Of a stretch of DNA of 32,000 nt, positions 10,344 through 30,969 are shown piece by piece. The notes beneath the pieces are model-generated. The model was given only the letters and a program-made list of their open reading frames with translations. It did no database searches and was not told where the DNA came from. The position numbers were made by a program, and so were the translations under genes. The stretch is from contig NZ_SODD01000008.1 in NCBI RefSeq assembly GCF_004365815.1, positions 35,177 to 67,176 of the forward strand. Direction: 5' to 3'. Each line of letters opens with the position of its first letter. Position 1 is the stretch's first letter. This stretch comes from Breznakia blatticola (GTDB taxonomy: Bacteria > Bacillota_I > Bacilli_A > Erysipelotrichales > Erysipelotrichaceae).

Positions 10344-10420
10344 GGCGGTCGTGGTGAAGTGGTTAACACAGCGGGTTGTGGTCCCGTCATGCGTGGGTTC
10401 AAATCCCATCGGTCGCCCCA
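10344..10420 (+). tRNA. tRNA-His (anticodon GTG), CCA encoded
   Basis: Hand-folded cloverleaf. There is an extra 5' G (G-1) pairing with C73, which is the His identity element. The anticodon stem GCGGG/CCCGT carries the loop TTGTGGT. The T-arm is GTGGG-TTCAAAT-CCCAT, and the 3' end is CCA. Confidence 0.9.
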
Positions 10421-15668: not shown

Positions 15669-17438
15669 ATGAAATATACAAATGGAAATTATGAAGCATT
15701 TGCTAGACCAAGAAAACCACAAGGAGTTGATGATAAGTCTGCACATATTGTAGGTTCAGGTTTAGCAGGACTTGCTGCAGCGGTCTTCTTAATTCGTGAT
15801 GGTCAAATGAAAGGTAGTAATATTCATATTTATGAAGAGTTAGGTATCAATGGTGGTTCTTTGGATGGAACATTTATACCACACGATGGATTTGTTGTCC
15901 GTGGTGGACGTGAAATGGAAAATCACTTTGAGTGTTTATGGGACTTATTTCGTTCTGTGCCATCACTAGAAGTAGAAAATGCATCTGTACTTGATGAGTT
16001 TTACTGGTTAGATAAAGATGATCCAAACTCTTCAAATTGTAGAATTATCGAAAAACGCGGACAAAGAGTTACTGATGATGGTATGTTTACTTTAACAAAA
16101 CAAGCCCAAAAAGAGATAGTTGAATTATTTATGACAAGTGAAGATCGTCTAATTGGTAAGAAAATAGAAGATGTATTTACAGATGAATTCTTCGCATCGA
16201 ATTTCTGGATTTACTGGAGTAGTATGTTTGCTTTTGAAACATGGCATTCAGCTATTGAAATGCGTCGATATATTATGCGTTTTATTCACCATATTAAAGG
16301 ATTACCTGATTTCACTGCATTAAAATTCACAAAGTATAATCAATATGAGTCATTAGTCAAACCATTGTTGAGTTACTTGGAAAAAGAAGGTGTACATTTT
16401 GAGATGAATACACGAGTGGATAATGTACTTGTTGATATAACAGAGCATAAAAAAGTCGCAAAAATCTTAAAGCTTGTTAAGGATGATGAGCCTATGGAAG
16501 TTGTACTATCAGAAAATGATTTAGTCTTTGTAACAAATGGTTCTATCACTGAAAGTTCAACTCAAGGTGATCACAATACACCTGCACGAATCACACATGA
16601 ATTAGGTGGAAGTTGGAAGTTATGGAAAAACTTAGCAAGTCAAAGTAAAGAGTTTGGTAATCCGGATGTGTTCTGCGAAAATCTACCAGAAAAAAGTTGG
16701 TATGTTTCAGCAACAGTAACGTTTAAAAACTTTGATATCGAACCATATTTAGAACGTTTGACACACCGTAAAATGCGCTCAGGCAAAGTGGTGACTGGTG
16801 GAATTGTCACAGTGAAAGATTCAAATTGGATGTTATCATTTACAATGCATAGACAACCACACTTCAAGGAACAAAAAGACAATGAAAGCGTTGCATGGGT
16901 ATATGCGCTATATTCTGGAATTCCAGGAAACTACATCAAAAAACCAGTTGAAGAATGCTCGGGTAAAGAAATTGCTGCGGAGTTGATGTATCACTTAGGT
17001 GTACCAGAAAATCAAATTGATGCGATGGTAAATAGTTGTGTCTCAATTCCAGTGTATATGCCATTTATCACTTCGTATTTTATGGTACGTAAAGAAGGTG
17101 ACCGTCCACTTGTTGTACCAAAAGATGCAACGAATTTAGCCTTTATTGGAAATTTTGCGGATACAAAAAGAGATACCGTTTTCACAACTGAATATTCAGT
17201 TCGTACGGCAATGGAAGCTGTATATCAATTACTTGATATTGAACGTGGTGTTCCTGAGGTCTTTGCATCAGCTTACGATCTTCGTGAACTTGCCAATTCA
17301 GTATATTATCTATCAGATAAAAAGAAACTTAGTGAAATGGAATTACCATTTGTTGAAAAGCATTTGGTTAAACATTTCATGAAGAAAATAGATGGAACAT
17401 ATATTGAAGAATTACTTAAAAATGCAAAACTTTTATAA
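15669..17438 (+). CDS. ohyA: Oleate hydratase (MCRA family, FAD-dependent)
   Basis: 589 aa. The N-terminus [13 protein letters not shown]...[21 protein letters not shown] (FAD Rossmann) and [16 protein letters not shown] are typical of fatty-acid hydratases. Confidence 0.9.
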
Positions 17439-18346: not shown

Positions 18347-18608
18347 AATACAAAACAAATACGATGAAAAGAAGAGTAGAGTTTCAAAAGTCTTCATAGA
18401 GAGTCCTGGTTGGTGAAAAAGGATAAGATAAGTCGAACTTGAATATGGTCTTGGAGTAGTACAGTTGAGAGCTTGCTTTAGATTGTACCGTGTGCACCCG
18501 TTAACGTGCTAGAGTTTGATAGAACTTGAAGAGGTTATTGTAGTGATGCAATAATGAACTAAGGTGGTAACACGATGACATTCGTCCTTATGGGTGAATG
18601 TTTTTTTT
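18347..18608 (+). promoter_or_regulatory. T-box riboswitch leader, probable Met (AUG) specifier, with terminator
   Basis: The AGAGAG stem-I motif is at about 18400. A candidate specifier, gaatATGg, is at 18445-18447. The T-box sequence AACTAAGGTGGTAACACG is at 18557-18574. The terminator is a 10-bp stem (18578-18601) plus T8. Confidence 0.8.
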
Positions 18609-18625
18609 ATGATTTTGGAGGATAT

Positions 18626-19660
18626 ATGGAAAAGGTTGTCTTAAAACACATTTCGAAAACGTTTCAAGTAAAAACACATGATGTGCATGCAGTAAAAGAT
18701 GTATCGCTAAGTGTGGATGAAGGCGATATCTTTGGTGTCATTGGATTTAGTGGAGCAGGAAAAAGTACACTTATACGTTGTATCAATTTGCTTGAAAGAC
18801 CAACGAGTGGTGAAGTATGGGTAAATGGGAAAAACTTAATTGAATTACCAGCAAAGCAATTGCGTGAAGAACGTAAGAAAATCGGAATGATTTTTCAACA
18901 TTTCAATCTGATGCGTTCAAGAACGGTTGCACAAAATATTGCCTATCCATTAAAAGGTAGTGGAAAAAGTAAAGCTGAAATCGAAGCAAAAGTAAGTGAA
19001 TTACTTGAACTTGTAGAATTGTCAGATAAAGCAAAAGCATATCCAAGTCAACTGTCTGGTGGACAAAAACAAAGAGTTGCCATTGCAAGAGCGCTTGCAA
19101 ATGATCCAAGCATCTTGCTTTGTGATGAAGCAACAAGTGCACTGGATCCACAAACAACACAATCGATATTGCAATTACTAAAAGAAGTTAATGAGAAATT
19201 AAAACTTACAATTGTTATCATCACGCATGAAATGGCGGTTGTAAAACAAATTTGTAATCGTGTTGCGATTATGGAAAATGGAGTCGTGGTTGAACAAGGA
19301 AATATTGTGGATATCTTCAGTAACCCACAAAATCAGACAACAAAGAATTTCATTAATACGACAACTTCGATTAATGAAATATATGAAATGATTGAAGAAG
19401 AAAATCCACTTGTTAAGTTGGAAGAAAATGAAACGATGCTTCGTTTAACATATGGTTCAAGTAACACCGATGAACCAATCATGTCAGAATTGGTTAACCA
19501 ATTTAATTTAGAATTTAATATCGTATTTGCGAATGTTGAAGTACTAAGTGCAACTCCAATTGGAAATCTCGTTGTAAAACTAAAAGGTGAAACCAAAGAT
19601 AGACAAGATGCTATTTCATATATCGAAAAACAAGGTGTGAAAGTTGAGGTGTTAAATTAA
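18626..19660 (+). CDS. metN: Methionine ABC transporter ATP-binding protein
   Basis: The ATG at 18626 follows a GGAGGA RBS. Walker A GFSGAGKST, signature LSGGQKQR, Walker B LLCDEATSALD, and a C-terminal NIL domain. Confidence 0.9.
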   Translation: MEKVVLKHISKTFQVKTHDVHAVKDVSLSVDEGDIFGVIGFSGAGKSTLIRCINLLERPTSGEVWVNGKNLIELPAKQLREERKKIGMIFQHFNLMRSRTVAQNIAYPLKGSGKSKAEIEAKVSELLELVELSDKAKAYPSQLSGGQKQRVAIARALANDPSILLCDEATSALDPQTTQSILQLLKEVNEKLKLTIVIITHEMAVVKQICNRVAIMENGVVVEQGNIVDIFSNPQNQTTKNFINTTTSINEIYEMIEEENPLVKLEENETMLRLTYGSSNTDEPIMSELVNQFNLEFNIVFANVEVLSATPIGNLVVKLKGETKDRQDAISYIEKQGVKVEVLN

Positions 19661-20397
19661 TGGGAAGTCAAATTTCACAATTCTTTGAATTGATCATTGG
19701 TAAAGTTATTGAATTAATTGATCATATACTACCAATGGAATTTATGAATGATCCAATTATGGTGAAAGAATTAGTTAATGCAACTTGGGAAACCATATGG
19801 ATGTTACTTGCATCTGGTATTGTTGCATTATTACTTGGACTACTTGTTGGAGTGATTGTGACAGTTACAAACAAAGATGGCTTGTTGGAAAACAAAATTA
19901 TCTACTTTGTATTTGATAAATTTATCAATTTCTTTAGAGCAGTACCATTTGTTATTTTGATTCCATTGATGATGGGATTATCAAGAGTACTTGTAGGTAC
20001 GGCGACAGGGACCACAGGAATGCTTGTGACACTTGTTTTTGGAATTATTCCATTCTTTGCTAGACAAGTACAAAGTGCATTGGCAGATGTGGATTCTGGA
20101 TTGATTGAGGCAAGTATCTCAATGGGGGATTCCCCCTTACAAATTATTACAAGAGTTTACATTAAAGAAAGTATTCCAGGATTGATACGTTCTATATCGA
20201 TGACACTTGTTTCTGCATTAGGACTTACAGCAATGGCAGGACAAGTTGGTGGTGGAGGATTAGGTGCCTTCGCTATTCGTTATGGATATCAAAGACATGA
20301 ACTTGATGCAACATGGACAACGGTAGTCATTATATTAGTTATTGTTGTAATTATTGAATCAAGTGCAAATTATTTCGCAAAAAAATTAACACATTAA
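19660..20397 (+). CDS. metI: Methionine ABC transporter permease
   Basis: Its start overlaps the metN stop. It is polytopic, with an EAS-type loop (EASISMGDSPLQ). Confidence 0.9.
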   Translation: MGSQISQFFELIIGKVIELIDHILPMEFMNDPIMVKELVNATWETIWMLLASGIVALLLGLLVGVIVTVTNKDGLLENKIIYFVFDKFINFFRAVPFVILIPLMMGLSRVLVGTATGTTGMLVTLVFGIIPFFARQVQSALADVDSGLIEASISMGDSPLQIITRVYIKESIPGLIRSISMTLVSALGLTAMAGQVGGGGLGAFAIRYGYQRHELDATWTTVVIILVIVVIIESSANYFAKKLTH

Positions 20398-20423
20398 AAG
20401 TGTATCTTAAGGAGGATAAGAAG

Positions 20424-21260
20424 ATGAAAAAAATTATTGCAAGCTTAATTGTTGGTTTATTGGTTTTAACAGGATGTGGAGGATCAGATGATAGTGCTGG
20501 CGCTGATGACAAACTAGAAAAGATTACAGTTGCAGCAAGTGCGACACCACATGCTGAAATTTTAGAAGAAGTAAAAGAAGATTTAAAAGAAGCAGGATAT
20601 GAATTAGAAGTAAAAGTATTTGATGATTACATTTTACCAAATACAGTTGTAGATGATGGAGAAATTGATGCAAACTTCTTCCAACATGAACCATACTTAA
20701 TCAGTTTTAATGAAGATAATGGAACAGACTTAGTAGCTGTAGCAAATATTCACATTGAACCTTTAGGAATTTATGCAAAGGATAATGAAAAAACAAACTC
20801 AGATTTTTCAGTTGCTGATGTAAAAGAAGGAGCAGTTATTACTATTCCAAATGATCCATCAAATGAATACCGTGCATTACTATTGTTACAAGAAAAAGGC
20901 ATTATCAAAATCAAAGATAGCAACAACTTAAAATCAACAGTTGTAGATATTGTAGAGAATCCAAAAAATGTAGAAATCAAAGAAGTGGAAGCAGCTGGAA
21001 TTCCAGCAACACTACCAGATGTTGATTACGCTGTAATTAATGGAAACTATGCACTTACAAATAAAGTTGAAGATAAACTAATTGTTGCAGAAACAAAAGA
21101 TTCAAAAGGTGCATTAAAATATGCAAACATCCTTGCAGTTAAAAAAGGAAACGAAGACAGTGCAAAAACAAAAGCTTTAATTAAAGCGTTACACACAGAA
21201 AAAGTTAAAACATTCATTGAAGAAACATTTGGTGACTTAGTCATTCCAGCTTTTGATTAA
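20424..21260 (+). CDS. metQ: Methionine-binding lipoprotein (MetQ/NlpA family)
   Basis: The ATG at 20424 follows an AAGGAGG RBS. The lipobox is LLVLTGCGG, and NlpA-family motifs are present (FQHEPYL, NDPSNEYRALLLL). Confidence 0.9.
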   Translation: MKKIIASLIVGLLVLTGCGGSDDSAGADDKLEKITVAASATPHAEILEEVKEDLKEAGYELEVKVFDDYILPNTVVDDGEIDANFFQHEPYLISFNEDNGTDLVAVANIHIEPLGIYAKDNEKTNSDFSVADVKEGAVITIPNDPSNEYRALLLLQEKGIIKIKDSNNLKSTVVDIVENPKNVEIKEVEAAGIPATLPDVDYAVINGNYALTNKVEDKLIVAETKDSKGALKYANILAVKKGNEDSAKTKALIKALHTEKVKTFIEETFGDLVIPAFD

Positions 21261-21297: not shown

Positions 21298-21371
21298 TTA
21301 TGTGCATGAATCAATAATAGACAAGCATTTCTTATTTGTATGGTATAATCAATGCAAGGAGCGTGAGGTCT

Positions 21372-22085
21372 ATGGAGTTTGTGAAACGAAATAAAATTTT
21401 TGTTGCACTTGCATCAGTGCTTTTGCTATTGATTGCAATATTGACTTATGAGTTTGTTCAGCCAAGTAACACCCCAAACACGGTTGTTGCAGGAAATGAT
21501 AGTGAGAAAACTACTAGTATTTCTAATTTCTCGTTAAAGTTGACTTCTGCAAACGACTTAACGTTTCATTGGGAAATAAATCAAGGTAGTGAAACAATTT
21601 CAAAGATTGAGATTTTTCATGATACAACCTTACTAAAAGATGTCACTAGCCAAGCAGTTTACTCAACTCCACTATTTCAAAGTGGAATTAAAACAGGAAA
21701 TAATGAGTTTACGATAAAAGTAACGTTAGGAAATGGGAAAGTACTAGAAAAACGTTTGTATCGTTATATCGATGAGGTATTGAGTTTCAAGGAGGAACAT
21801 CGACTTGAAGGGACTACTTTATATATGGAAACTACATATTATGTGCAAAAAGATCAAAAACCACGCACACCTATGGTTTCTTATACGCTAAATCAAAAGG
21901 GAGTTATTCCATTTGAGTATGTGAAAAGTGAAACCGTAAAAGTTGAAGGTGATTACCAACAACAAAAAGATTATTATACATTTGATCTGTCTCAAGTGAA
22001 TTCAGGAACATATGTGTTTTATTTGAATTTCAATTATAATGAGTTCAATTTAATGTTTAAACGTACAATCAGTGTAGACATATAA
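21372..22085 (+). CDS. N-terminally anchored extracytoplasmic protein of unknown function
   Basis: The ATG at 21372 lies downstream of a TGGTATAAT promoter (21340-21348) and an AAGGAG RBS. There is a single N-terminal TM helix (IFVALASVLLLLIAILTY). Confidence 0.65.
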   Translation: MEFVKRNKIFVALASVLLLLIAILTYEFVQPSNTPNTVVAGNDSEKTTSISNFSLKLTSANDLTFHWEINQGSETISKIEIFHDTTLLKDVTSQAVYSTPLFQSGIKTGNNEFTIKVTLGNGKVLEKRLYRYIDEVLSFKEEHRLEGTTLYMETTYYVQKDQKPRTPMVSYTLNQKGVIPFEYVKSETVKVEGDYQQQKDYYTFDLSQVNSGTYVFYLNFNYNEFNLMFKRTISVDI

Positions 22086-24225: not shown

Positions 24226-24240
24226 AGTTCTCCTCCTGAA

Positions 24241-24286
24241 TAAACAAAAAGGGTGCCGTAGACAAAAATATATCTACAGCACCCTT
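24241..24286 (-). terminator. Intrinsic terminator inside the glnN 5' leader (attenuator)
   Basis: On the minus strand: AGGGTGCTGTAGA-tatatttttg-TCTACGGCACCCT (13 bp, one G-U) followed by TTTTTGTTTATT. It ends about 10 nt before the AGGAGGA RBS of glnN. Confidence 0.7.
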
Positions 24287-24291
24287 GCTGT
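24276..24291 (-). promoter_or_regulatory. Hexaloop hairpin overlapping the terminator 5' arm (ANTAR-substrate-like half-site)
   Basis: On the minus strand: ACAGC[AAGGGT]GCTGT, a 5-bp stem whose hexaloop has A at position 1 and G at position 4. I could not find a convincing partner hexaloop hairpin upstream. Confidence 0.3.
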
Positions 24292-24329
24292 TACCATGAG
24301 TTTAATCAATAATTACGTATAAGTCAAGG

Positions 24330-24422
24330 TTAATTTGAATCTTTTTTACCAATATCACTTACTTTGATTGCAATGTAAAGTAACAACATCAGTTGAATAA
24401 CATCATAGATAAATTTGTACAT
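24330..24422 (-). CDS. Candidate 30-aa hydrophobic small protein (MYKFIYDVIQLMLLLYIAIKVSDIGKKDSN)
   Basis: An AAAGGAG RBS lies 7 nt upstream of the ATG. It is not in the ORF track because it is under 60 aa. It sits between the divergent promoter region and the glnN attenuator. Confidence 0.4.
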   Translation of the reverse strand: MYKFIYDVIQLMLLLYIAIKVSDIGKKDSN

Positions 24423-24627: not shown

Positions 24628-24656
24628 TTGACAGGAATTTAGTTGTAAACTATAAT
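24628..24656 (+). promoter_or_regulatory. Consensus sigma-A promoter of the GS-like/ANTAR/pyrG operon
   Basis: TTGACA, 17 nt, TATAAT, both hexamers perfect. The leader before the RBS is only about 20-25 nt. Confidence 0.65.
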
Positions 24657-24688
24657 CATAAAATAGATTTTGAAGAAGGAGCGTGACT

Positions 24689-25957
24689 ATGGAGCTACAA
24701 GATATTTTGCAATACATTCAACAGCATCATGTGAAATTTGTGCGACTCGCTTTTTGCGACATTTTTGGAACCCTCAAAAATCTCTCAATTAATGCAGAAG
24801 ACTTCGAAGATGCAACAACATTTGGAGTTAACTTGGATGCTTCTATAGTTAACGGTTTTATGAACTTCAAAAAAACGGATTTACTCTTGTTTCCTGATTT
24901 GGAAACCATGACAGTACTGCCTTGGCGCAGCAATCATGAGAAAGTTGTTCGTTTTTTTTGTGATATTCGTCATGTGGATCACCGTCCATTTGAAGGTGAT
25001 GGTCGTTATATTTTAAAGCAAGCGATGGAAGCTTGCGAAGCTTATGGATATACACCACGAATTGGAATTGAAAGTGAGTTTTATGTTTTTAAAAATGATG
25101 AAGATGGAAAACCGACAAATCTTCCAGTCGATGATGCATCGTATTTAGATGTAACACCACTTGATAAGTGTGAAAATATTCGTCGTGATGTATGTTTGGC
25201 TCTTGGTGAAATGGGGGTAAAAACGACTCTTTCCTACCATGAAAAAGGTCCGGGACAAAATGTTATTATGTTTCAAAAAGACCATGCACTACCGAGTGCT
25301 GACAATTTTATCACTTTTAAAAATGCGGTAAAAAGCATTGCGTTGGTAAATGATTTGTATGCAAGTTTTATGCCACGTCCAATGGCAAATGAGGCTGGTA
25401 GTGGACTTCGTATTAAAGTGATTTTAAGTAAAAATGATCGGAATATTTTTGATGATGAATTTGAAGTTAATATTCAAGAACAAAGAAGTTTCATCGCTGG
25501 AATATTAAATCGAATTGATGATATGAGTGCATTTTTAAATCCAATACATAATTCATATGAACGTTTAGGACGTGAAAAAGCACCAAAATACATAACGTGG
25601 TCAAAAGAAAATGAAAGTGAATTAATTCGTGTTAGTGAGAAAAATGATGAGTATTCATTTATTACACTACGTTCACCTGATGCAGCATGCAATCCATATA
25701 TTAGCTTTGCTTTATTGTTGTTTGCTGGAGTTGAAGGAATGAAAAATCATGAAGAACTTCATGAAAATACAAAAAGTCCAAGAATGCTACCAGATAGCTT
25801 GAAAGAAGCAATTAAAAAACTGGAGACATCAACGTTTATAAAAACGTATTTAAATGAGAAAACACTTGAGACATTTATTCGTGCCAAAAAAGAAGAAGTA
25901 GAACAAATTGATAAAGAAGCTTCTTTTGCCTTGGATCCATACTTCCGCCTAATTTAG
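24689..25957 (+). CDS. Type-I glutamine synthetase homologue with a degenerate active site (predicted pseudoenzyme or sensor)
   Basis: The ATG at 24689 lies 8 nt after a GAAGGAG RBS; the GTG at 24683 is too close to the RBS. The GS-I fold is clear (GIESEFYVF, SYHEKGPGQN, AGSGLR, NSYERL, RSPDAACNPY), but many canonical ligand positions are substituted (see findings). Confidence 0.85.
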   Translation: MELQDILQYIQQHHVKFVRLAFCDIFGTLKNLSINAEDFEDATTFGVNLDASIVNGFMNFKKTDLLLFPDLETMTVLPWRSNHEKVVRFFCDIRHVDHRPFEGDGRYILKQAMEACEAYGYTPRIGIESEFYVFKNDEDGKPTNLPVDDASYLDVTPLDKCENIRRDVCLALGEMGVKTTLSYHEKGPGQNVIMFQKDHALPSADNFITFKNAVKSIALVNDLYASFMPRPMANEAGSGLRIKVILSKNDRNIFDDEFEVNIQEQRSFIAGILNRIDDMSAFLNPIHNSYERLGREKAPKYITWSKENESELIRVSEKNDEYSFITLRSPDAACNPYISFALLLFAGVEGMKNHEELHENTKSPRMLPDSLKEAIKKLETSTFIKTYLNEKTLETFIRAKKEEVEQIDKEASFALDPYFRLI

Positions 25958-25973
25958 TAGGAGTGGATACAGT

Positions 25974-26540
25974 ATGCCAAGTTGTTTAATTGTATCGAGT
26001 TTGGATAAAAGTTTAGATGCACTGACTAAACTTTTATCAAGTATCGATTTAAAGAAAATAGAATGTGTAAAAAGTGCAACAGAAGCAAGACAGGTTCTGG
26101 CAAAACAAGCATTTGATATGGTGTTGATTAATGCTCCATTATCAGATGAATTCGGACATGAATTGACATTACAAATTACCGAAAACTCTACAAGTGGTGT
26201 CCTTTTTCTGGTGAAAAATGAACTGGTTGATGAACTGAGTAGCAAACTAACAAGACATGGCGTGATGGTTATTGGAAAACCGTTGAATCGTCATATGTTT
26301 ACACAAGCGGTTCGTATGGGATTATCCACACATCAACGCTTGTCACAAGCAGAAAAAGAAAATTTGCGATTACATGCCAAAGTGGAAAATTTAGAATTGA
26401 TCAGTCGTGCAAAATACACACTGATGGAGTATTTAAATATGGGAGAAGCGCAAGCACATCGTTATATAGAAAAGAAAGCGATGGATGCTAGAATTTCCAA
26501 AGAAGAAGTTGCGAAAGATATATTAAAAACATATGGTTAG
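25974..26540 (+). CDS. ANTAR-domain RNA-binding antiterminator with an AmiR-like pseudo-receiver domain
   Basis: 188 aa. The C-terminal ANTAR pattern is [43 protein letters not shown]. The N-terminal receiver-like fold lacks the acidic residues. Confidence 0.85.
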
Positions 26541-26551
26541 AAGGAGTTAAG

Positions 26552-28159
26552 ATGAGAAAATACATATTTGTTACCGGTGGAGTAGTAAGTGGATTAGGTA
26601 AAGGGATAACCGCAGCAAGTTTAGGACGTATGTTGAAAGAACGTGGGTTGAAAGTCATCGCACAAAAGATGGATCCATATATCAATGTGGATTGTGGAAC
26701 CATGTCACCATACCAACATGGGGAAGTGTTTGTTACCGATGATGGTGCTGAAACCGATTTGGATTTAGGACACTATGAACGTTTTATCGATGAAGATCTG
26801 AATCGATTTTCGAATCTAACAAGTGGAAAAGTGTATTGGAATGTATTAAACAAAGAACGTAAAGGTGAATACTTAGGAGATACAGTTCAAGTTATTCCAC
26901 ATATTACACAAGAAATTAAAGATTTTATTTATGCTGTAGGTGATGAAGATGAAGCGGATATTGTCATCTCGGAAATTGGAGGAACAACGGGAGATATTGA
27001 ATCGCAACCATTTTTAGAAGCAATTCGTCAAGTCGGTTTAGAAGTTGGACGTGAAAACGTATTATTTATTCACGTTACACTTGTGCCTTACATTAAAAGT
27101 AGTGGGGAACACAAAAGTAAACCAACCCAACACAGTGTAAAACAACTGCAAAGTTTAGGTATCTCACCAGATATCATCGTTTGTCGTGCAGATGAAGATT
27201 TAGAACCAAGCATCTTACAAAAGATTTCACTGTTCTGTAATGTAAAGCAAGATTGTGTAATTCAAAATAAAACATTACCTGTGTTATATGAAGCACCATT
27301 AATGCTTGAAGAGGCAAACTTCTCGGATATTGTTTGTCGTGAATTGCATTTAAAGACAAAGAAACCTGATGTAAGTGAATGGAAAAATCTAGTCGAACGT
27401 ATTAAACACGTAAATAAAGAAGTACATATCGCTTTAGTTGGTAAATATGTAAAACTACATGATGCCTATTTATCTGTTGTTGAAGCATTAAAACATGGTG
27501 GATATGAAAATGATGCGGATGTAAAAATTACATGGGTAGACAGTGAAGCACTAACGGATGAAAACTGCTCGAAATATTTCGAAGGTATGGATGGAATTAT
27601 CTTACCTGGTGGCTTTGGTGGCCGTGGAATTGAAGGAATGATTGCAGCATGTCACTATGCACGTGTGAATAATATTCCATATTTTGGTATTTGTTTAGGA
27701 ATGCAAATTGCATCCATTGAGTTTGCACGTTATGGATTAGGCTTGAGGGATGCAAATTCAAGTGAGTTTACACCTGCAGGTGCAAACAATGTAATTGACT
27801 TGATGGAAAGTCAAGTTGATGTGACTTCTAAAGGAGGAACGATGCGTTTAGGTGCATATCCTTGTCATATTCAAGCAAATAGTATTTTACATAAAGCATA
27901 CCAAAATGATGATATTAGTGAACGTCACCGTCATCGCTATGAGTTTAATAATGCATATCGTGAACGATTCCAGGAAAATGGAATGCATATTACTGGGACA
28001 AGTCCTGACAATATGCTAGTGGAAGCGGTAGAGTTTAGTGATAATAAATTCCATATCGGTGTACAATATCACCCTGAATTTAAATCACGTCCAAATAAAG
28101 CACACCCGCTGTTCCGTGAGTTCATAAAAGTTGCAGTAGTAAACAAGCATTTAGTATAA
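26552..28159 (+). CDS. pyrG: CTP synthase (glutamine-hydrolysing)
   Basis: 535 aa. [19 protein letters not shown], and the GATase triad region GICLGMQ...HRHRYE. Confidence 0.95.
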
Positions 28160-28314
28160 GCAAAAGATTCATAAAATATTCTTATTTAAAATGGATGAAA
28201 CGCATGTAGTTCGTGTGTATTTGTCCATTTTTTATTGTTGAGCGTTAACGTTTCTTCTATATACGCATAATTTCACATGTGATATATTAATTGTGTGTTA
28301 GAGGGGATTACATT

Positions 28315-30969
28315 ATGAATCAATTTGAAAACATCTTAGAATTTAGAGGGACATGGAGGTTATATCAAAAACGAGTGTTGAATAATTTTGATCAACATGC
28401 TACAGACAAGAAAATACATATTGTTGCTGCTCCTGGATCAGGAAAAACAACTGTTGGTATAGAAATGATAAAGAGATTAGGTCAAAACTGTCTAATCTTA
28501 ACTCCTAGTATCACTATCAGAGAACAATGGCTTGCTAGAGTGGAAGATGTTTTTTTATGTAACAAAAATGATGCGAAAGATTATTTATCTAATACTCTTT
28601 CATCATATAAACCAATTACGGCAATTACATATCAAGCAATGCATAGTATATATGCAAAAGAAACAAGTGAAGAGAATATAAAAGATATTGAGATTGTTAA
28701 TTTGTTGAATGAACACAATGTAAAAGTCATCTGTCTAGATGAAGCACACCATATGCGTAATGAATGGGTAAAAGCACTTGAACAAATTATTTCGAAGCTT
28801 GAAGATGTTCAACTTATATCATTAACCGCAACACCACCATATGATGCGAATTTTAATGAATGGAAACGATATATCGATTTGTGTGGACCAATTGATGAAG
28901 AAATATTTACACCTGAGTTAGTAAAGGAAGAGAGTTTATGCCCACATCAAGATTATGTGTACTTTAACTGGCCAACAAAAGAAGAAAGAGCAGCAATTGA
29001 AAAACATAATAAACAAGTTTTACTGGCTAAAGAAGAACTGATGAACTCACCTGCGTTATTTGAACTTGTAAAAACACATCCTGCATTGACAAACCCACAA
29101 GATTGTTTGGATTCGTTGCTTGAAAATCCCGCATATTTATATGCTTTGATTTTGTATATGGAAGAAAAGAAGATTGTATATCCTAGTATGTTAAGTCAAG
29201 CGTTATCAGTGAAAAAAAGAAAACTGCCTACAGTATCCATCAAATATTTAGAGATACTTATGCAGGGTATCCTATTTCACGATTTATCAAGTTTTAATGC
29301 AAACGATAACAAGGTTGAAACGTTGCGAGCAATTTTAAAAAAGTATGGATGCATATATCGGAATGAAGTACGAATGCTGACAAATGAGAACATTAATAAA
29401 TCGTTAATTAATAGTAAAGGAAAACTTGAAAGTATAAAGAAAATCGCATTAGCTGAATATCATAATTTAGGTGAGCAACTTCGTATGTTGATTCTCTGTG
29501 ATTTTATTAAAAAAGAATCTTTAGAATTGATTGGTAGTGGAACCATGAATCAAAGCATTGGGACGGTACCTGTTTTCGAAGCGTTACGCACACAAAACAC
29601 ACAGATGAAACTATCGATTCTTAGTGGTAGTATCATTGTTTTACCCAAAACTACAGCAGTTTCTATTTGTAAGGCTCTTATAGATATGGGATATGAAGCA
29701 CATATGATACAGTTAAACGTAGATGAATATGTTCGAATCAATAGCAATGCGGATAACGGGGTGTTGGTCAAATGTGTAACTGATGCATTTGAACAAGGAG
29801 AAATTCAGATTTTGATTGGTACTAAGGCACTACTTGGAGAAGGTTGGGACTCACCTTGTATTAATTCTTTAATTTTGGCTTCATTTGTTGGTTCATATGT
29901 TTCTAGTAATCAAATGCGAGGACGCGCAATTCGAAAAGATTCAATGCATCCAGATAAAGTAAGTAATATTTGGCATTTGGTGTGCATAGAACCGAAATCG
30001 AGTATACATGATATTTTTTATGATCCTTACACCTCATATGATTTGCAAATGTTAAAACGACGCTTTGCGACGTTTTTAGGTGTTCACTATACCAAACCAC
30101 TTATTGAAAGTGGTTTTACAAGGTTGAGTTACATTCAGGAGTATGGGAAAGATTTGAATAAAAACACAATCACAAAAATAAATAATCAAATGTTAGATGC
30201 ATCAACAAAACGCGAAGAATTACGAGATCGTTGGAATGAAGCGTTGGTTTGTATTAGTGAGCAAAATCCTGTTGAAGATGTTTTAGAACTTGAAGTAGAG
30301 ATGTTAAAAAAGAATTATGTATTTGCAAACCATTGGCTATTCATTGTATGTACAATCATTTCTTCATTTGTAATGCAGTTTGTACGAGGAGTATCTTTAA
30401 AATTAGAGCAAAATGTATTTGGAGTCATTGGTTTATTTGTCATCTTTGTTTTTCTTATTTTTGTGTTGGATATCGGATTATCGAAACTTTTAGCGTATAT
30501 TACACCACAACACACAGTAAAAAAAGTAGGACAAGTAATACTTGCTACACTAGAAGATTTGAATATAGTTAGTCATGAAAGTAAATATGTACGAATCAAA
30601 GACGTAAAAGGAACAGGAGTGATGTTAGTATATCTAGAAGGTGGAAATGCAAAAGATAAGCATTTGTTTTCTACATGTATGGAGGAGTATTTTTCCAGTA
30701 TTGATAATCAAAGATATATTATTGTACGCAAAGGCTTTAAAAATGCATTAAATAAGTATTTTGCAGTTCCTGAGATTTTTGCGAAACGGAAGCAAGACGC
30801 ACAAATATTTACATCACATATAAAACGCGTTCTTGGTCTATGTGAGTTAGTCTATACAAGAAATGCAGAAGGGCGAAAAATGTTATTAAAGGCACGTGGA
30901 AAATGTTTCGGGTTTCGAAATGAAAAAATGGTTGACTCTAAACGTAAAGTTCTTGGTAAGTATGAGTAA
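28315..30969 (+). CDS. SF2 (DEAH) helicase-family protein with a C-terminal two-helix membrane hairpin and an extra C-terminal domain
   Basis: The ATG at 28315 lies 7 nt after a GAGGGGA RBS. Motif I AAPGSGKT, Ia LILTPSITIREQW, II DEAH, III SLTATP, V/VI LLGEGWD...QMRGRAIR. It then has TM helices WLFIVCTIISSFVMQFV and VFGVIGLFVIFVFLIFVLDIGL, followed by about 165 aa. Confidence 0.8.
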   Translation: MNQFENILEFRGTWRLYQKRVLNNFDQHATDKKIHIVAAPGSGKTTVGIEMIKRLGQNCLILTPSITIREQWLARVEDVFLCNKNDAKDYLSNTLSSYKPITAITYQAMHSIYAKETSEENIKDIEIVNLLNEHNVKVICLDEAHHMRNEWVKALEQIISKLEDVQLISLTATPPYDANFNEWKRYIDLCGPIDEEIFTPELVKEESLCPHQDYVYFNWPTKEERAAIEKHNKQVLLAKEELMNSPALFELVKTHPALTNPQDCLDSLLENPAYLYALILYMEEKKIVYPSMLSQALSVKKRKLPTVSIKYLEILMQGILFHDLSSFNANDNKVETLRAILKKYGCIYRNEVRMLTNENINKSLINSKGKLESIKKIALAEYHNLGEQLRMLILCDFIKKESLELIGSGTMNQSIGTVPVFEALRTQNTQMKLSILSGSIIVLPKTTAVSICKALIDMGYEAHMIQLNVDEYVRINSNADNGVLVKCVTDAFEQGEIQILIGTKALLGEGWDSPCINSLILASFVGSYVSSNQMRGRAIRKDSMHPDKVSNIWHLVCIEPKSSIHDIFYDPYTSYDLQMLKRRFATFLGVHYTKPLIESGFTRLSYIQEYGKDLNKNTITKINNQMLDASTKREELRDRWNEALVCISEQNPVEDVLELEVEMLKKNYVFANHWLFIVCTIISSFVMQFVRGVSLKLEQNVFGVIGLFVIFVFLIFVLDIGLSKLLAYITPQHTVKKVGQVILATLEDLNIVSHESKYVRIKDVKGTGVMLVYLEGGNAKDKHLFSTCMEEYFSSIDNQRYIIVRKGFKNALNKYFAVPEIFAKRKQDAQIFTSHIKRVLGLCELVYTRNAEGRKMLLKARGKCFGFRNEKMVDSKRKVLGKYE

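Follow-up and report, generated by a model that had tools for sequence, protein, structure and literature searches.

A gene for a class I glutamine synthetase (GS-I) is followed by a gene for an ANTAR protein in nitrogen clusters that are under antitermination control, as in the glnA-nitR pair of Clostridium saccharobutylicum and the corresponding pair of Clostridium thermocellum (PMC6316151; PMC4676874; PMC9888227). The C. thermocellum cluster consists of GOGAT, a type I-alpha glnA (Clo1313_2031), and the ANTAR gene (Clo1313_2030) (PMC4676874; PMC9888227). Deletion of this glnA "deregulates nitrogen metabolism", in the words of the title of Rydzak 2017 as cited in PMC9888227. In both clostridia GS-I is treated as an enzyme, whereas the protein analyzed here lacks several metal and ATP ligands. 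It is encoded in a 32,000-nt stretch of the Breznakia blatticola genome (assembly GCF_004365815.1, contig NZ_SODD01000008.1, positions 35,177 to 67,176; hereafter the window), and the evidence on B. blatticola is that of this one window, a part of the genome. The gene lies upstream of an ANTAR gene and is divergent from glnN, the gene for a type III glutamine synthetase (GSIII). We put the probability at roughly 0.6 that this GS-I paralogue no longer makes glutamine and has been kept as the signaling subunit of a two-protein nitrogen switch with the ANTAR protein.

Several described mechanisms bear on this reading. The feedback-inhibited GS-I-alpha dodecamer of Bacillus subtilis, a "trigger enzyme", binds glutamine and signals nitrogen status to TnrA and GlnR by direct contact, with flap Glu304 and Arg62 of the D50 loop reading out glutamine (PMC9249791). 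PMC12591593 and PMC3795266 describe ANTAR proteins that are held or released by an adjacent ligand-binding protein, namely AmiC-AmiR in Pseudomonas aeruginosa and NasS-NasT in Paracoccus denitrificans. The canonical ANTAR substrate has two hexaloop hairpins with a linker between them, both required for EutV, and its 3' side extends into the 5' arm of an intrinsic terminator; an A at loop position 1 and a G at position 4 are its signature (PMC3369931; PMC12591593). Our full-text literature search, which did not reach Stutz 2007 and Rydzak 2017, found no published proposal of a GS-like sensor for an ANTAR protein and no published explanation of how a NitR-type antiterminator senses nitrogen. A 2025 review of RNA-binding antiterminators makes no mention of GS (PMC12591593).

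Active site and conservation of the GS-I-like protein

The open reading frame (ORF) is intact, and a database homologue search matched its product at 100% identity to a 422-residue B. blatticola protein (P0001). Pfam identifies Gln-synt_N (1e-22) and Gln-synt_C (2e-76) domains. Against the NCBIfam equivalog for GlnA (TIGR00653), which has a cut-off of 429 bits, the protein reaches 309 bits and therefore falls outside that equivalog. All of its equivalog scores are far under their cut-offs, including a weak match to gamma-glutamylputrescine synthetase (207 bits; cut-off 650). An AlphaFold2 model (pLDDT 87.4, pTM 0.91) superimposes on the Methanosarcina mazei GS structure (8s59) with a TM score of 0.91 and an rmsd of 2.1 Å, which identifies a GS-I fold.

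A preliminary description of this DNA, made from the sequence alone, had called the protein a GS-I homologue with a systematically substituted active site in a well-preserved fold. To set the motif register, the protein was aligned by phmmer with GS-I proteins of solved structure (M. mazei 8s59, E = 5e-88, residues 4–406). The alignment reproduced exactly the motifs that had been read by eye (GQNV, AGSGLR, REKAP, NESELIRVS, and FITLRSPD) and showed that the register was correct and that the ligands in question were not conserved. Substitutions are given as the residue in Salmonella GS numbering followed by the residue in the window protein. SQHEI of active GS is GQNVI, which replaces the metal ligand E220 with V192. 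NGSGMH is AGSGLR, which replaces N264 with A236 and the metal ligand H269 with R241. PGYEAP is REKAP, in which the flap residue E327 is K297 and the flap is shorter by one residue. QNRSSLIRIP is ENESELIRVS, in which an ATP-site Arg is lost (R339 to E309), and TRIELR is SFITLR, which lacks a second ATP-site Arg (R355 to F324) and a metal ligand (E357 to T326). These are the six losses (E220, H269, E327, R339, R355, and E357) that the preliminary description had proposed. A further proposed change, NSYKRL to NSYERL, is real but carries no information because the K320 position varies freely across the whole subfamily.

Three of the six metal ligands (E129, E131, E212, E220, H269, and E357) are thus replaced. 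Metal site n1 lacks E220, and site n2 lacks H269 and E357. The protein keeps E129, E131, E212, R321, R344, R359, D50, and S53, and the GIESEF and YHE motifs are retained as had been noted. Much of the amino acid pocket (E131, R321, R359, Y179, and D50) is among the residues kept. E220, H269, and E357 are each conserved in 111 of the 120 nearest homologues, and the ligand losses are confined to one clade of nine proteins (P0001-7, P0009, and P0010) that are 51–100% identical to the window protein. An enzyme homologue that lacks residues essential for catalysis is a pseudoenzyme; the window protein is one by this definition and is called pseudo-GS below. Its residues suggest that it is catalytically inactive.

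It is distinctly unlikely that pseudo-GS has remained an enzyme, whether as a ligase whose chemistry or substrates have changed, comparable to the gamma-glutamyl-amine ligases derived from GS, or as a weak GS that uses Arg or Lys in place of the second metal. Such a role would be in keeping with retention of most of metal site n1 and of R321, R344, and R359. GS-like families with other substrates do exist, as illustrated by the weak gamma-glutamylputrescine synthetase match and by the structure of glutamate–methylamine ligase (9qur), but the low equivalog scores place pseudo-GS far from the profiles. Each metal site has lost ligands, and Glu, Phe, and Lys have replaced R339, R355, and the flap Glu. 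Sister lineages have lost other residues, including E129, E131, and E212, and a single new chemistry does not fit this pattern.

Selection on the gene was estimated by comparison with the closest relative, Erysipelotrichaceae MTC7 (L087), whose pseudo-GS is 86% identical. The dN/dS values were 0.065 for pseudo-GS, 0.052 for the ANTAR regulator, 0.035 for GSIII, and 0.018 for the CTP synthase gene pyrG; dS is ~1.4 and near saturation, which makes the ratios rough, yet they are far from 1. The same substitutions occur in intact ORFs of lineages down to 51% identity. The pseudo-GS promoter and ribosome-binding site (RBS) are almost base-for-base conserved in MTC7, and the glnN promoter is conserved there too, whereas the middle of the intergenic region is deleted. 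The pseudo-GS gene is under purifying selection and is not a pseudogene. These results bear out the earlier view that the substitutions, in an intact ORF with a strong RBS and promoter, do not represent drift in a decaying gene. Decay of a gene made redundant by GSIII, with the ORF still open by chance, is essentially refuted. That idea could draw on the intact GSIII next door and on the greater divergence of pseudo-GS (86% identity to MTC7, compared to 95% for GSIII and pyrG), but the dN/dS, the conserved signals, the distant intact ORFs, and the confident AlphaFold model all speak against it.

Pairing with ANTAR proteins and loss of catalytic residues

The product of the gene downstream of pseudo-GS combines a receiver-like domain with an ANTAR RNA-binding domain (Pfam) and aligns to AmiR (1qo0) and Rv1626 (1s8n). 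Alignment to Rv1626 and EutV places Asn53 at the phospho-acceptor Asp position and Ser-Ser at the acidic pair. The domain is therefore a predicted pseudo-receiver that cannot be phosphorylated. At the phospho-acceptor position, 74 of the 83 ANTAR homologues compared carry Asn; 5 have Ser there, and only 3 have Asp.

When one genome per species was scanned with an alignment of four ANTAR homologues, at least 572 species hits were confirmed. The locus counts below are from the best 80 loci, all of which belong to Clostridia or Erysipelotrichia-type organisms (including Ruminococcus, Oscillospiraceae, Faecalibacterium-like bacteria, Sedimentibacter, Romboutsia, and Erysipelotrichaceae). Wherever upstream DNA is present, a GS-I-like gene lies directly upstream of the ANTAR gene on the same strand. 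There are two exceptions: locus L075 has no GS-like gene, and in L077 the two genes are fused. Conversely, the ANTAR gene was directly downstream in 8/8 contexts seeded with a GS-like protein. About half of the loci have GSIII within 8 kb. The order pseudo-GS, ANTAR, pyrG recurs in L001, L003, and L087. More generally, pyrG, carAB, purA, dapF, and an aminotransferase gene are repeatedly in one operon with the GS-like/ANTAR pair (L001, L003, L087, L089, and L091-L093). In a relative of Eubacterium ventriosum (L094, 2433-2714) the ANTAR gene is called as only 93 residues, which suggests a truncation or frameshift.

The GS-like partners form a distinct subfamily with DAS replacing DGS, a GPGQNE motif, and a flap that is one residue shorter. 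All six metal ligands are kept in 44 of the 76 non-redundant partners, and only 15 of these 44 also keep the flap Glu, R339, and R355. The other 32 partners lack one or more metal ligands, and 28 of these lack two or more. The losses fall into at least ten substitution patterns, such as E212D/E220V in a Romboutsia, E129K/E212K/H269S in Ruminococcus, E129R/E212K/H269K, E131Q/E212L/H269F, and E129S/E357I. Of the 82 replacements, 36 introduce Lys or Arg. The different patterns are incompatible with a single loss and indicate that catalytic residues were lost repeatedly and independently; the neighbor-joining tree behind the count is crude, and the exact number of events is uncertain. In contrast to the metal and nucleotide sites, much of the amino acid pocket is conserved across the partners. 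R321, R359, H211, Q218, and the NSYxR motif are kept in at least 95% of them, along with structural residues. An Acetivibrio locus with the thermocellum-type architecture served as a proxy for the C. thermocellum and C. saccharobutylicum GlnA sequences. Its GS-like protein is a ligand-complete member of the subfamily and is 46% identical to the window protein. The C. saccharobutylicum glnA is said to have complemented an E. coli glnA mutant.

The fused form was identified in an Oscillospiraceae metagenome-assembled genome (L077, 7665-8570), where a 301-residue ORF joins a GS-like amino terminus to the pseudo-receiver/ANTAR protein. The GS part consists of the first ~100 residues, which form the beta-grasp domain (Gln-synt_N) without the D50 loop, and the catalytic domain is absent. 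The fusion proteins are 300–303 residues long and comprise four 90%-identity clusters that have diverged to 68% and come from more than 20 contigs of independent samples (among them L089, 7001-7903, and proteins P0121, P0122, P0123, and P0125). The fused GS domain is still conserved (59–76% identity, pN 0.22 compared to pS 0.82). carAB and pyrG lie downstream of the fusion gene. A natural fusion is Rosetta stone-type evidence that the GS-like and ANTAR proteins work together, and the absence of the catalytic domain shows that this part of GS is wholly dispensable in the fused form. Together with the synteny, the fusion lends indirect support to a putative ligand-dependent complex between the separate proteins.

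The fusion and the synteny also bear on the idea that pseudo-GS is non-catalytic and does something unrelated to ANTAR, such as modulating GSIII directly or acting as a glutamine/glutamate buffer or scaffold, with the operon reflecting shared nitrogen-dependent expression. We consider this unlikely. Small protein partners are known to regulate GS enzymes, as GlnK1 and sP26 do in M. mazei (8tge), the amino acid pocket residues are retained, and GSIII adjoins the GS-like gene in the window, as it does in roughly half of the related loci. However, the linkage to ANTAR is much tighter than that to GSIII (nearly every locus compared to about half within 8 kb), and the fusion clade joins the GS amino-terminal domain to the ANTAR protein and not to GSIII. 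A pseudo-receiver, moreover, needs a partner or a ligand in place of a kinase.

The glnN leader and neighboring genes

GSIII is the obvious candidate for the working glutamine synthetase because its motifs EQEYF, HNEVAPxQxE, NGSGKH, HRLGAxEAPP, and NRTSPFAFTGNxFEFR are identical to those of the Bacteroides fragilis enzyme (3O6X; E = 1e-188). It is also the presumed target of regulation. The glnN leader contains, in order, a promoter, a hexaloop hairpin, an overlapping terminator, and the RBS (Table 1). The folding energy is -27 to -31 kcal/mol for the terminator (z -6 to -9) and -7 kcal/mol for the hairpin on its own. The two structures are mutually exclusive because the 5' arm of the terminator shares the loop and 3' arm of the hairpin. 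As the hairpin is weak and the terminator strong, read-through needs a factor that stabilizes the hairpin. An ANTAR gene directly downstream of the GS-I-like gene and a glnN terminator that overlaps an ANTAR-type hairpin are two features of the NitR-type module of Clostridia.

Table 1. Positions of genes and regulatory signals in the B. blatticola window
Feature	Position	Strand	Remarks
Type III glutamine synthetase GlnN (GSIII), 699 aa	22126..24225	-	divergent from pseudo-GS; catalytic motifs all intact
glnN ribosome-binding site AGGAGGAG	24230..24237	-	directly after terminator, before ATG
Intrinsic terminator, 16-bp stem (24286-24249) followed by U-run UUUUUGUUUAU	24240..24286	-	5' arm includes hexaloop and hairpin 3' arm
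Antiterminator hairpin ACAGC-AAGGGU-GCUGU (putative)	24276..24291	-	hexaloop with A1 and G4 (ANTAR type); at or near glnN transcript 5' end
glnN promoter-like site TTGACT-17-TAAACT	24299..24327	-	transcription start placed ~1-2 nt before hairpin
Pseudo-GS operon promoter-like site TTGACA-17-TATAAT	24628..24656	+	sigma-70 match 12/12; conserved in MTC7
Pseudo-GS ribosome-binding site AAGGAG	24676..24681	+	7 nt upstream of ATG 24689
GS-I-like pseudoenzyme gene	24689..25957	+	intact ORF, ATG at 24689, stop codon ends 25957, 422 aa
NitR-like ANTAR antiterminator, 188 aa, predicted pseudo-receiver	25974..26540	+	starts 16 nt after pseudo-GS stop; own RBS
pyrG, CTP synthase (glutamine amidotransferase)	26552..28159	+	starts 11 nt after ANTAR stop

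The same element is present in L001, L003, and L087. Hairpin elements of this kind were found in ~27 of 35 5' regions of GSIII genes from other species, compared to a background of 0.18 such hairpins per 380 nt. Across all loci, 58 leaders with an AAnGnn loop closed by C-G emerged from a scan for A..G.. hexaloops that overlap a terminator. The stems were preselected by a pairing filter, so only their variation, their positions, and the loop conservation count as evidence, and not the pairing itself. Of the 58 leaders, 40 have AAAGGC or AAAGGT as their loop; AAAGGC is the form in most species, compared to AAGGGU in the window. The closing pair is C-G without exception, and covariation is seen at stem pair 2 (G-C in 34 and A-T in 22) and stem pair 4 (C-G in 29 and G-C in 22). 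The stems fall into two classes: CAGC/GCUG precedes GSIII, and GAAC/GUUC precedes either the GOGAT operon or the operon of the GS-like/ANTAR pair. In nearly all cases, across dozens of species, a TTGACA-17-TATAxT promoter ends ~7 nt before the hairpin. This spacing places the hairpin at the 5' end of the transcript and makes it a single hairpin.

We did not detect a second (P1) hexaloop hairpin upstream of the glnN hairpin in the window or in dozens of species, where promoter-like boxes occupy the site. Neither a pattern search with three mismatches nor a generic hairpin-plus-terminator scan found further copies of the element in the window beyond the glnN leader. The leader scan between the pseudo-GS promoter and start codon found neither a terminator nor a hexaloop leader. 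The glnN leader had no Rfam match at gathering thresholds, and at E values up to 10 only spurious hairpin matches appeared. The two divergent promoters flank a 30-residue hydrophobic ORF, MYKFIYDVIQLMLLLYIAIKVSDIGKKDSN (24330-24422, minus strand), whose RBS is GAAAGGAG. This ORF was considered as a leader peptide and rejected; the whole stretch is absent in MTC7, and the ORF is probably not a conserved gene.

pyrG is probably in the same transcript as pseudo-GS and the ANTAR gene. An 892-residue ResIII/DEAD helicase-like ORF (28291-30969, plus strand) lies between pyrG and a sortase gene; it looks like an insertion in B. blatticola because the sortase gene directly follows pyrG in MTC7. A 249-residue ORF (21336-22085, plus strand) with a predicted amino-terminal membrane segment and no Pfam match is located directly downstream of the GSIII 3' end on the opposite strand. 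This position is conserved in L003, L087, and L088, whose counterparts have 237–238 residues and also lack a Pfam match. A T-box leader (18355-18592, plus strand; 118.6 bits) precedes a MetNIQ-like ABC transporter (18575-21260) composed of an ATPase with a NIL domain, a permease, and a lipoprotein. The true ATPase start is probably further downstream because the ORF call overlaps the T-box end. A tRNA gene (10345-10417, plus strand) and an MCRA-family (oleate-hydratase-like) gene (15669-17438, plus strand) are unrelated to these observations.

A candidate nitrogen switch and its relation to known systems

The adjacent ANTAR gene, the divergent GSIII gene with its attenuator leader, and the recurrent degeneration of the partners elsewhere supply a reason for the retention of pseudo-GS. 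In the mechanism we propose, what is left of the active site of the GS-like protein would bind a ligand that reports nitrogen status, with glutamine or glutamate as the most likely candidates. By analogy with AmiC-AmiR, NasS-NasT, and the complexes of glutamine-loaded Bacillus GS with TnrA and GlnR, the state of the ligand would make the GS-like protein bind or release the ANTAR protein. Free ANTAR protein would then stabilize the hexaloop hairpin at the 5' end (-7 kcal/mol), which competes with a terminator of -27 kcal/mol or stronger, and GSIII would be transcribed. Nitrogen excess would lead to sequestration and termination, and nitrogen limitation to release and read-through. Of all the steps, this polarity is the least certain; it is favored because of the analogies with the known pairs and the C. 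thermocellum glnA deletion. Nitrogen assimilation genes are reportedly up in that deletion strain despite high glutamine.

Four observations weigh against a sensor role. First, over half of the partners (44/76) are ligand-complete and may still function as enzymes; the pairing could thus have started out, and in places could remain, as simple co-expression of an enzyme and its regulator, the situation taken to apply to glnA-nitR of C. saccharobutylicum. Second, in L075 (5546-8561) the ANTAR gene stands beside a divergent GSIII without any GS-like gene, so the regulator can exist alone. Third, the RNA element is a single hairpin, unlike the dual hairpin that EutV requires. Fourth, Asn takes the place of R62 in the window protein, at a position where Arg never predominates in the subfamily, and Lys297 takes that of the flap Glu. 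Glutamine sensing through Arg62 and flap Glu304, as in Bacillus, was rejected as a direct model because these residues are not conserved.

A broader form of the proposal is more tentative, and we rate it somewhat short of an even chance. Clostridia and Erysipelotrichia, as represented by the at least 572 species hits, would share a switch in which a GS-I paralogue is the receptor of an ANTAR antiterminator with a dead receiver. Its active site would have been dismantled independently at least ten times, often with Lys or Arg at metal positions, because its job is sensing and not catalysis. One lineage would have cut the receptor to the beta-grasp domain of the fusion. The output would be a previously undescribed single-hairpin site with the loop AAAGGC at the 5' end of GSIII, GOGAT, and GS-like transcripts.

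How nitrogen is controlled in Clostridia and many dominant anaerobes of the gut and rumen is poorly understood. A sensor role for the GS-like protein would make it the first receptor with an enzyme fold to be described for an ANTAR protein. In that case the switch would account for the puzzling phenotype of the glnA-deleted C. thermocellum, which is of interest to biotechnology, and the degenerate, intact, and fused partners would constitute a clean natural experiment. Hundreds of "glutamine synthetase" annotations in gut metagenomes would then not be enzymes, which would affect metabolic reconstructions.

Moonlighting of GS as a regulator, sensor/ANTAR pairs, and glnA-nitR synteny are already known. 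In the papers searched we did not find descriptions of a repeatedly de-catalyzed GS paralogue as the presumptive ANTAR receptor, of the fusion form, or of the single 5'-terminal AAAGGC hairpin. Pseudo-GS resembles M. mazei GlnA1 and B. subtilis GlnA in its two-domain fold, its ~37–38% identity, and its retention of E129, E131, E212, R321, R344, and R359. It is unlike the active GS-I-alpha enzymes in the replacement of E220, H269, E357, E327, R339, R355, and N264 and in its shorter flap. Lengsin of the vertebrate lens is also a GS-I-class fold without catalytic residues that has been reused non-enzymatically, but it is a structural protein of eukaryotes and is not known to be linked to gene regulation. 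The glnN leader shares with the EutV, NasR, and AmiR leaders an A1/G4 hexaloop and a hairpin that cannot form together with the terminator. It differs from the canonical two-hairpin substrate (Ramesh 2012) in having a single hairpin directly after the promoter.

The likeness to the Bacillus GS complexes lies in the fold (TM ~0.9 to 4lni, 7tfa, and 7tf6). Bacillus GS, however, is fully active and its partners are DNA-binding proteins of the MerR type, whereas the partner of pseudo-GS is predicted to bind RNA and the read-out positions are Lys and Asn. The likeness to AmiC-AmiR and NasS-NasT lies in the partner, and AmiR also lacks a phosphorylatable receiver. Complex formation is established for those two pairs and is proposed for the window pair. 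AmiC and NasS have the periplasmic-binding-protein fold, whereas the protein next to the ANTAR gene in the window has the GS fold and is probably a 12-subunit oligomer.

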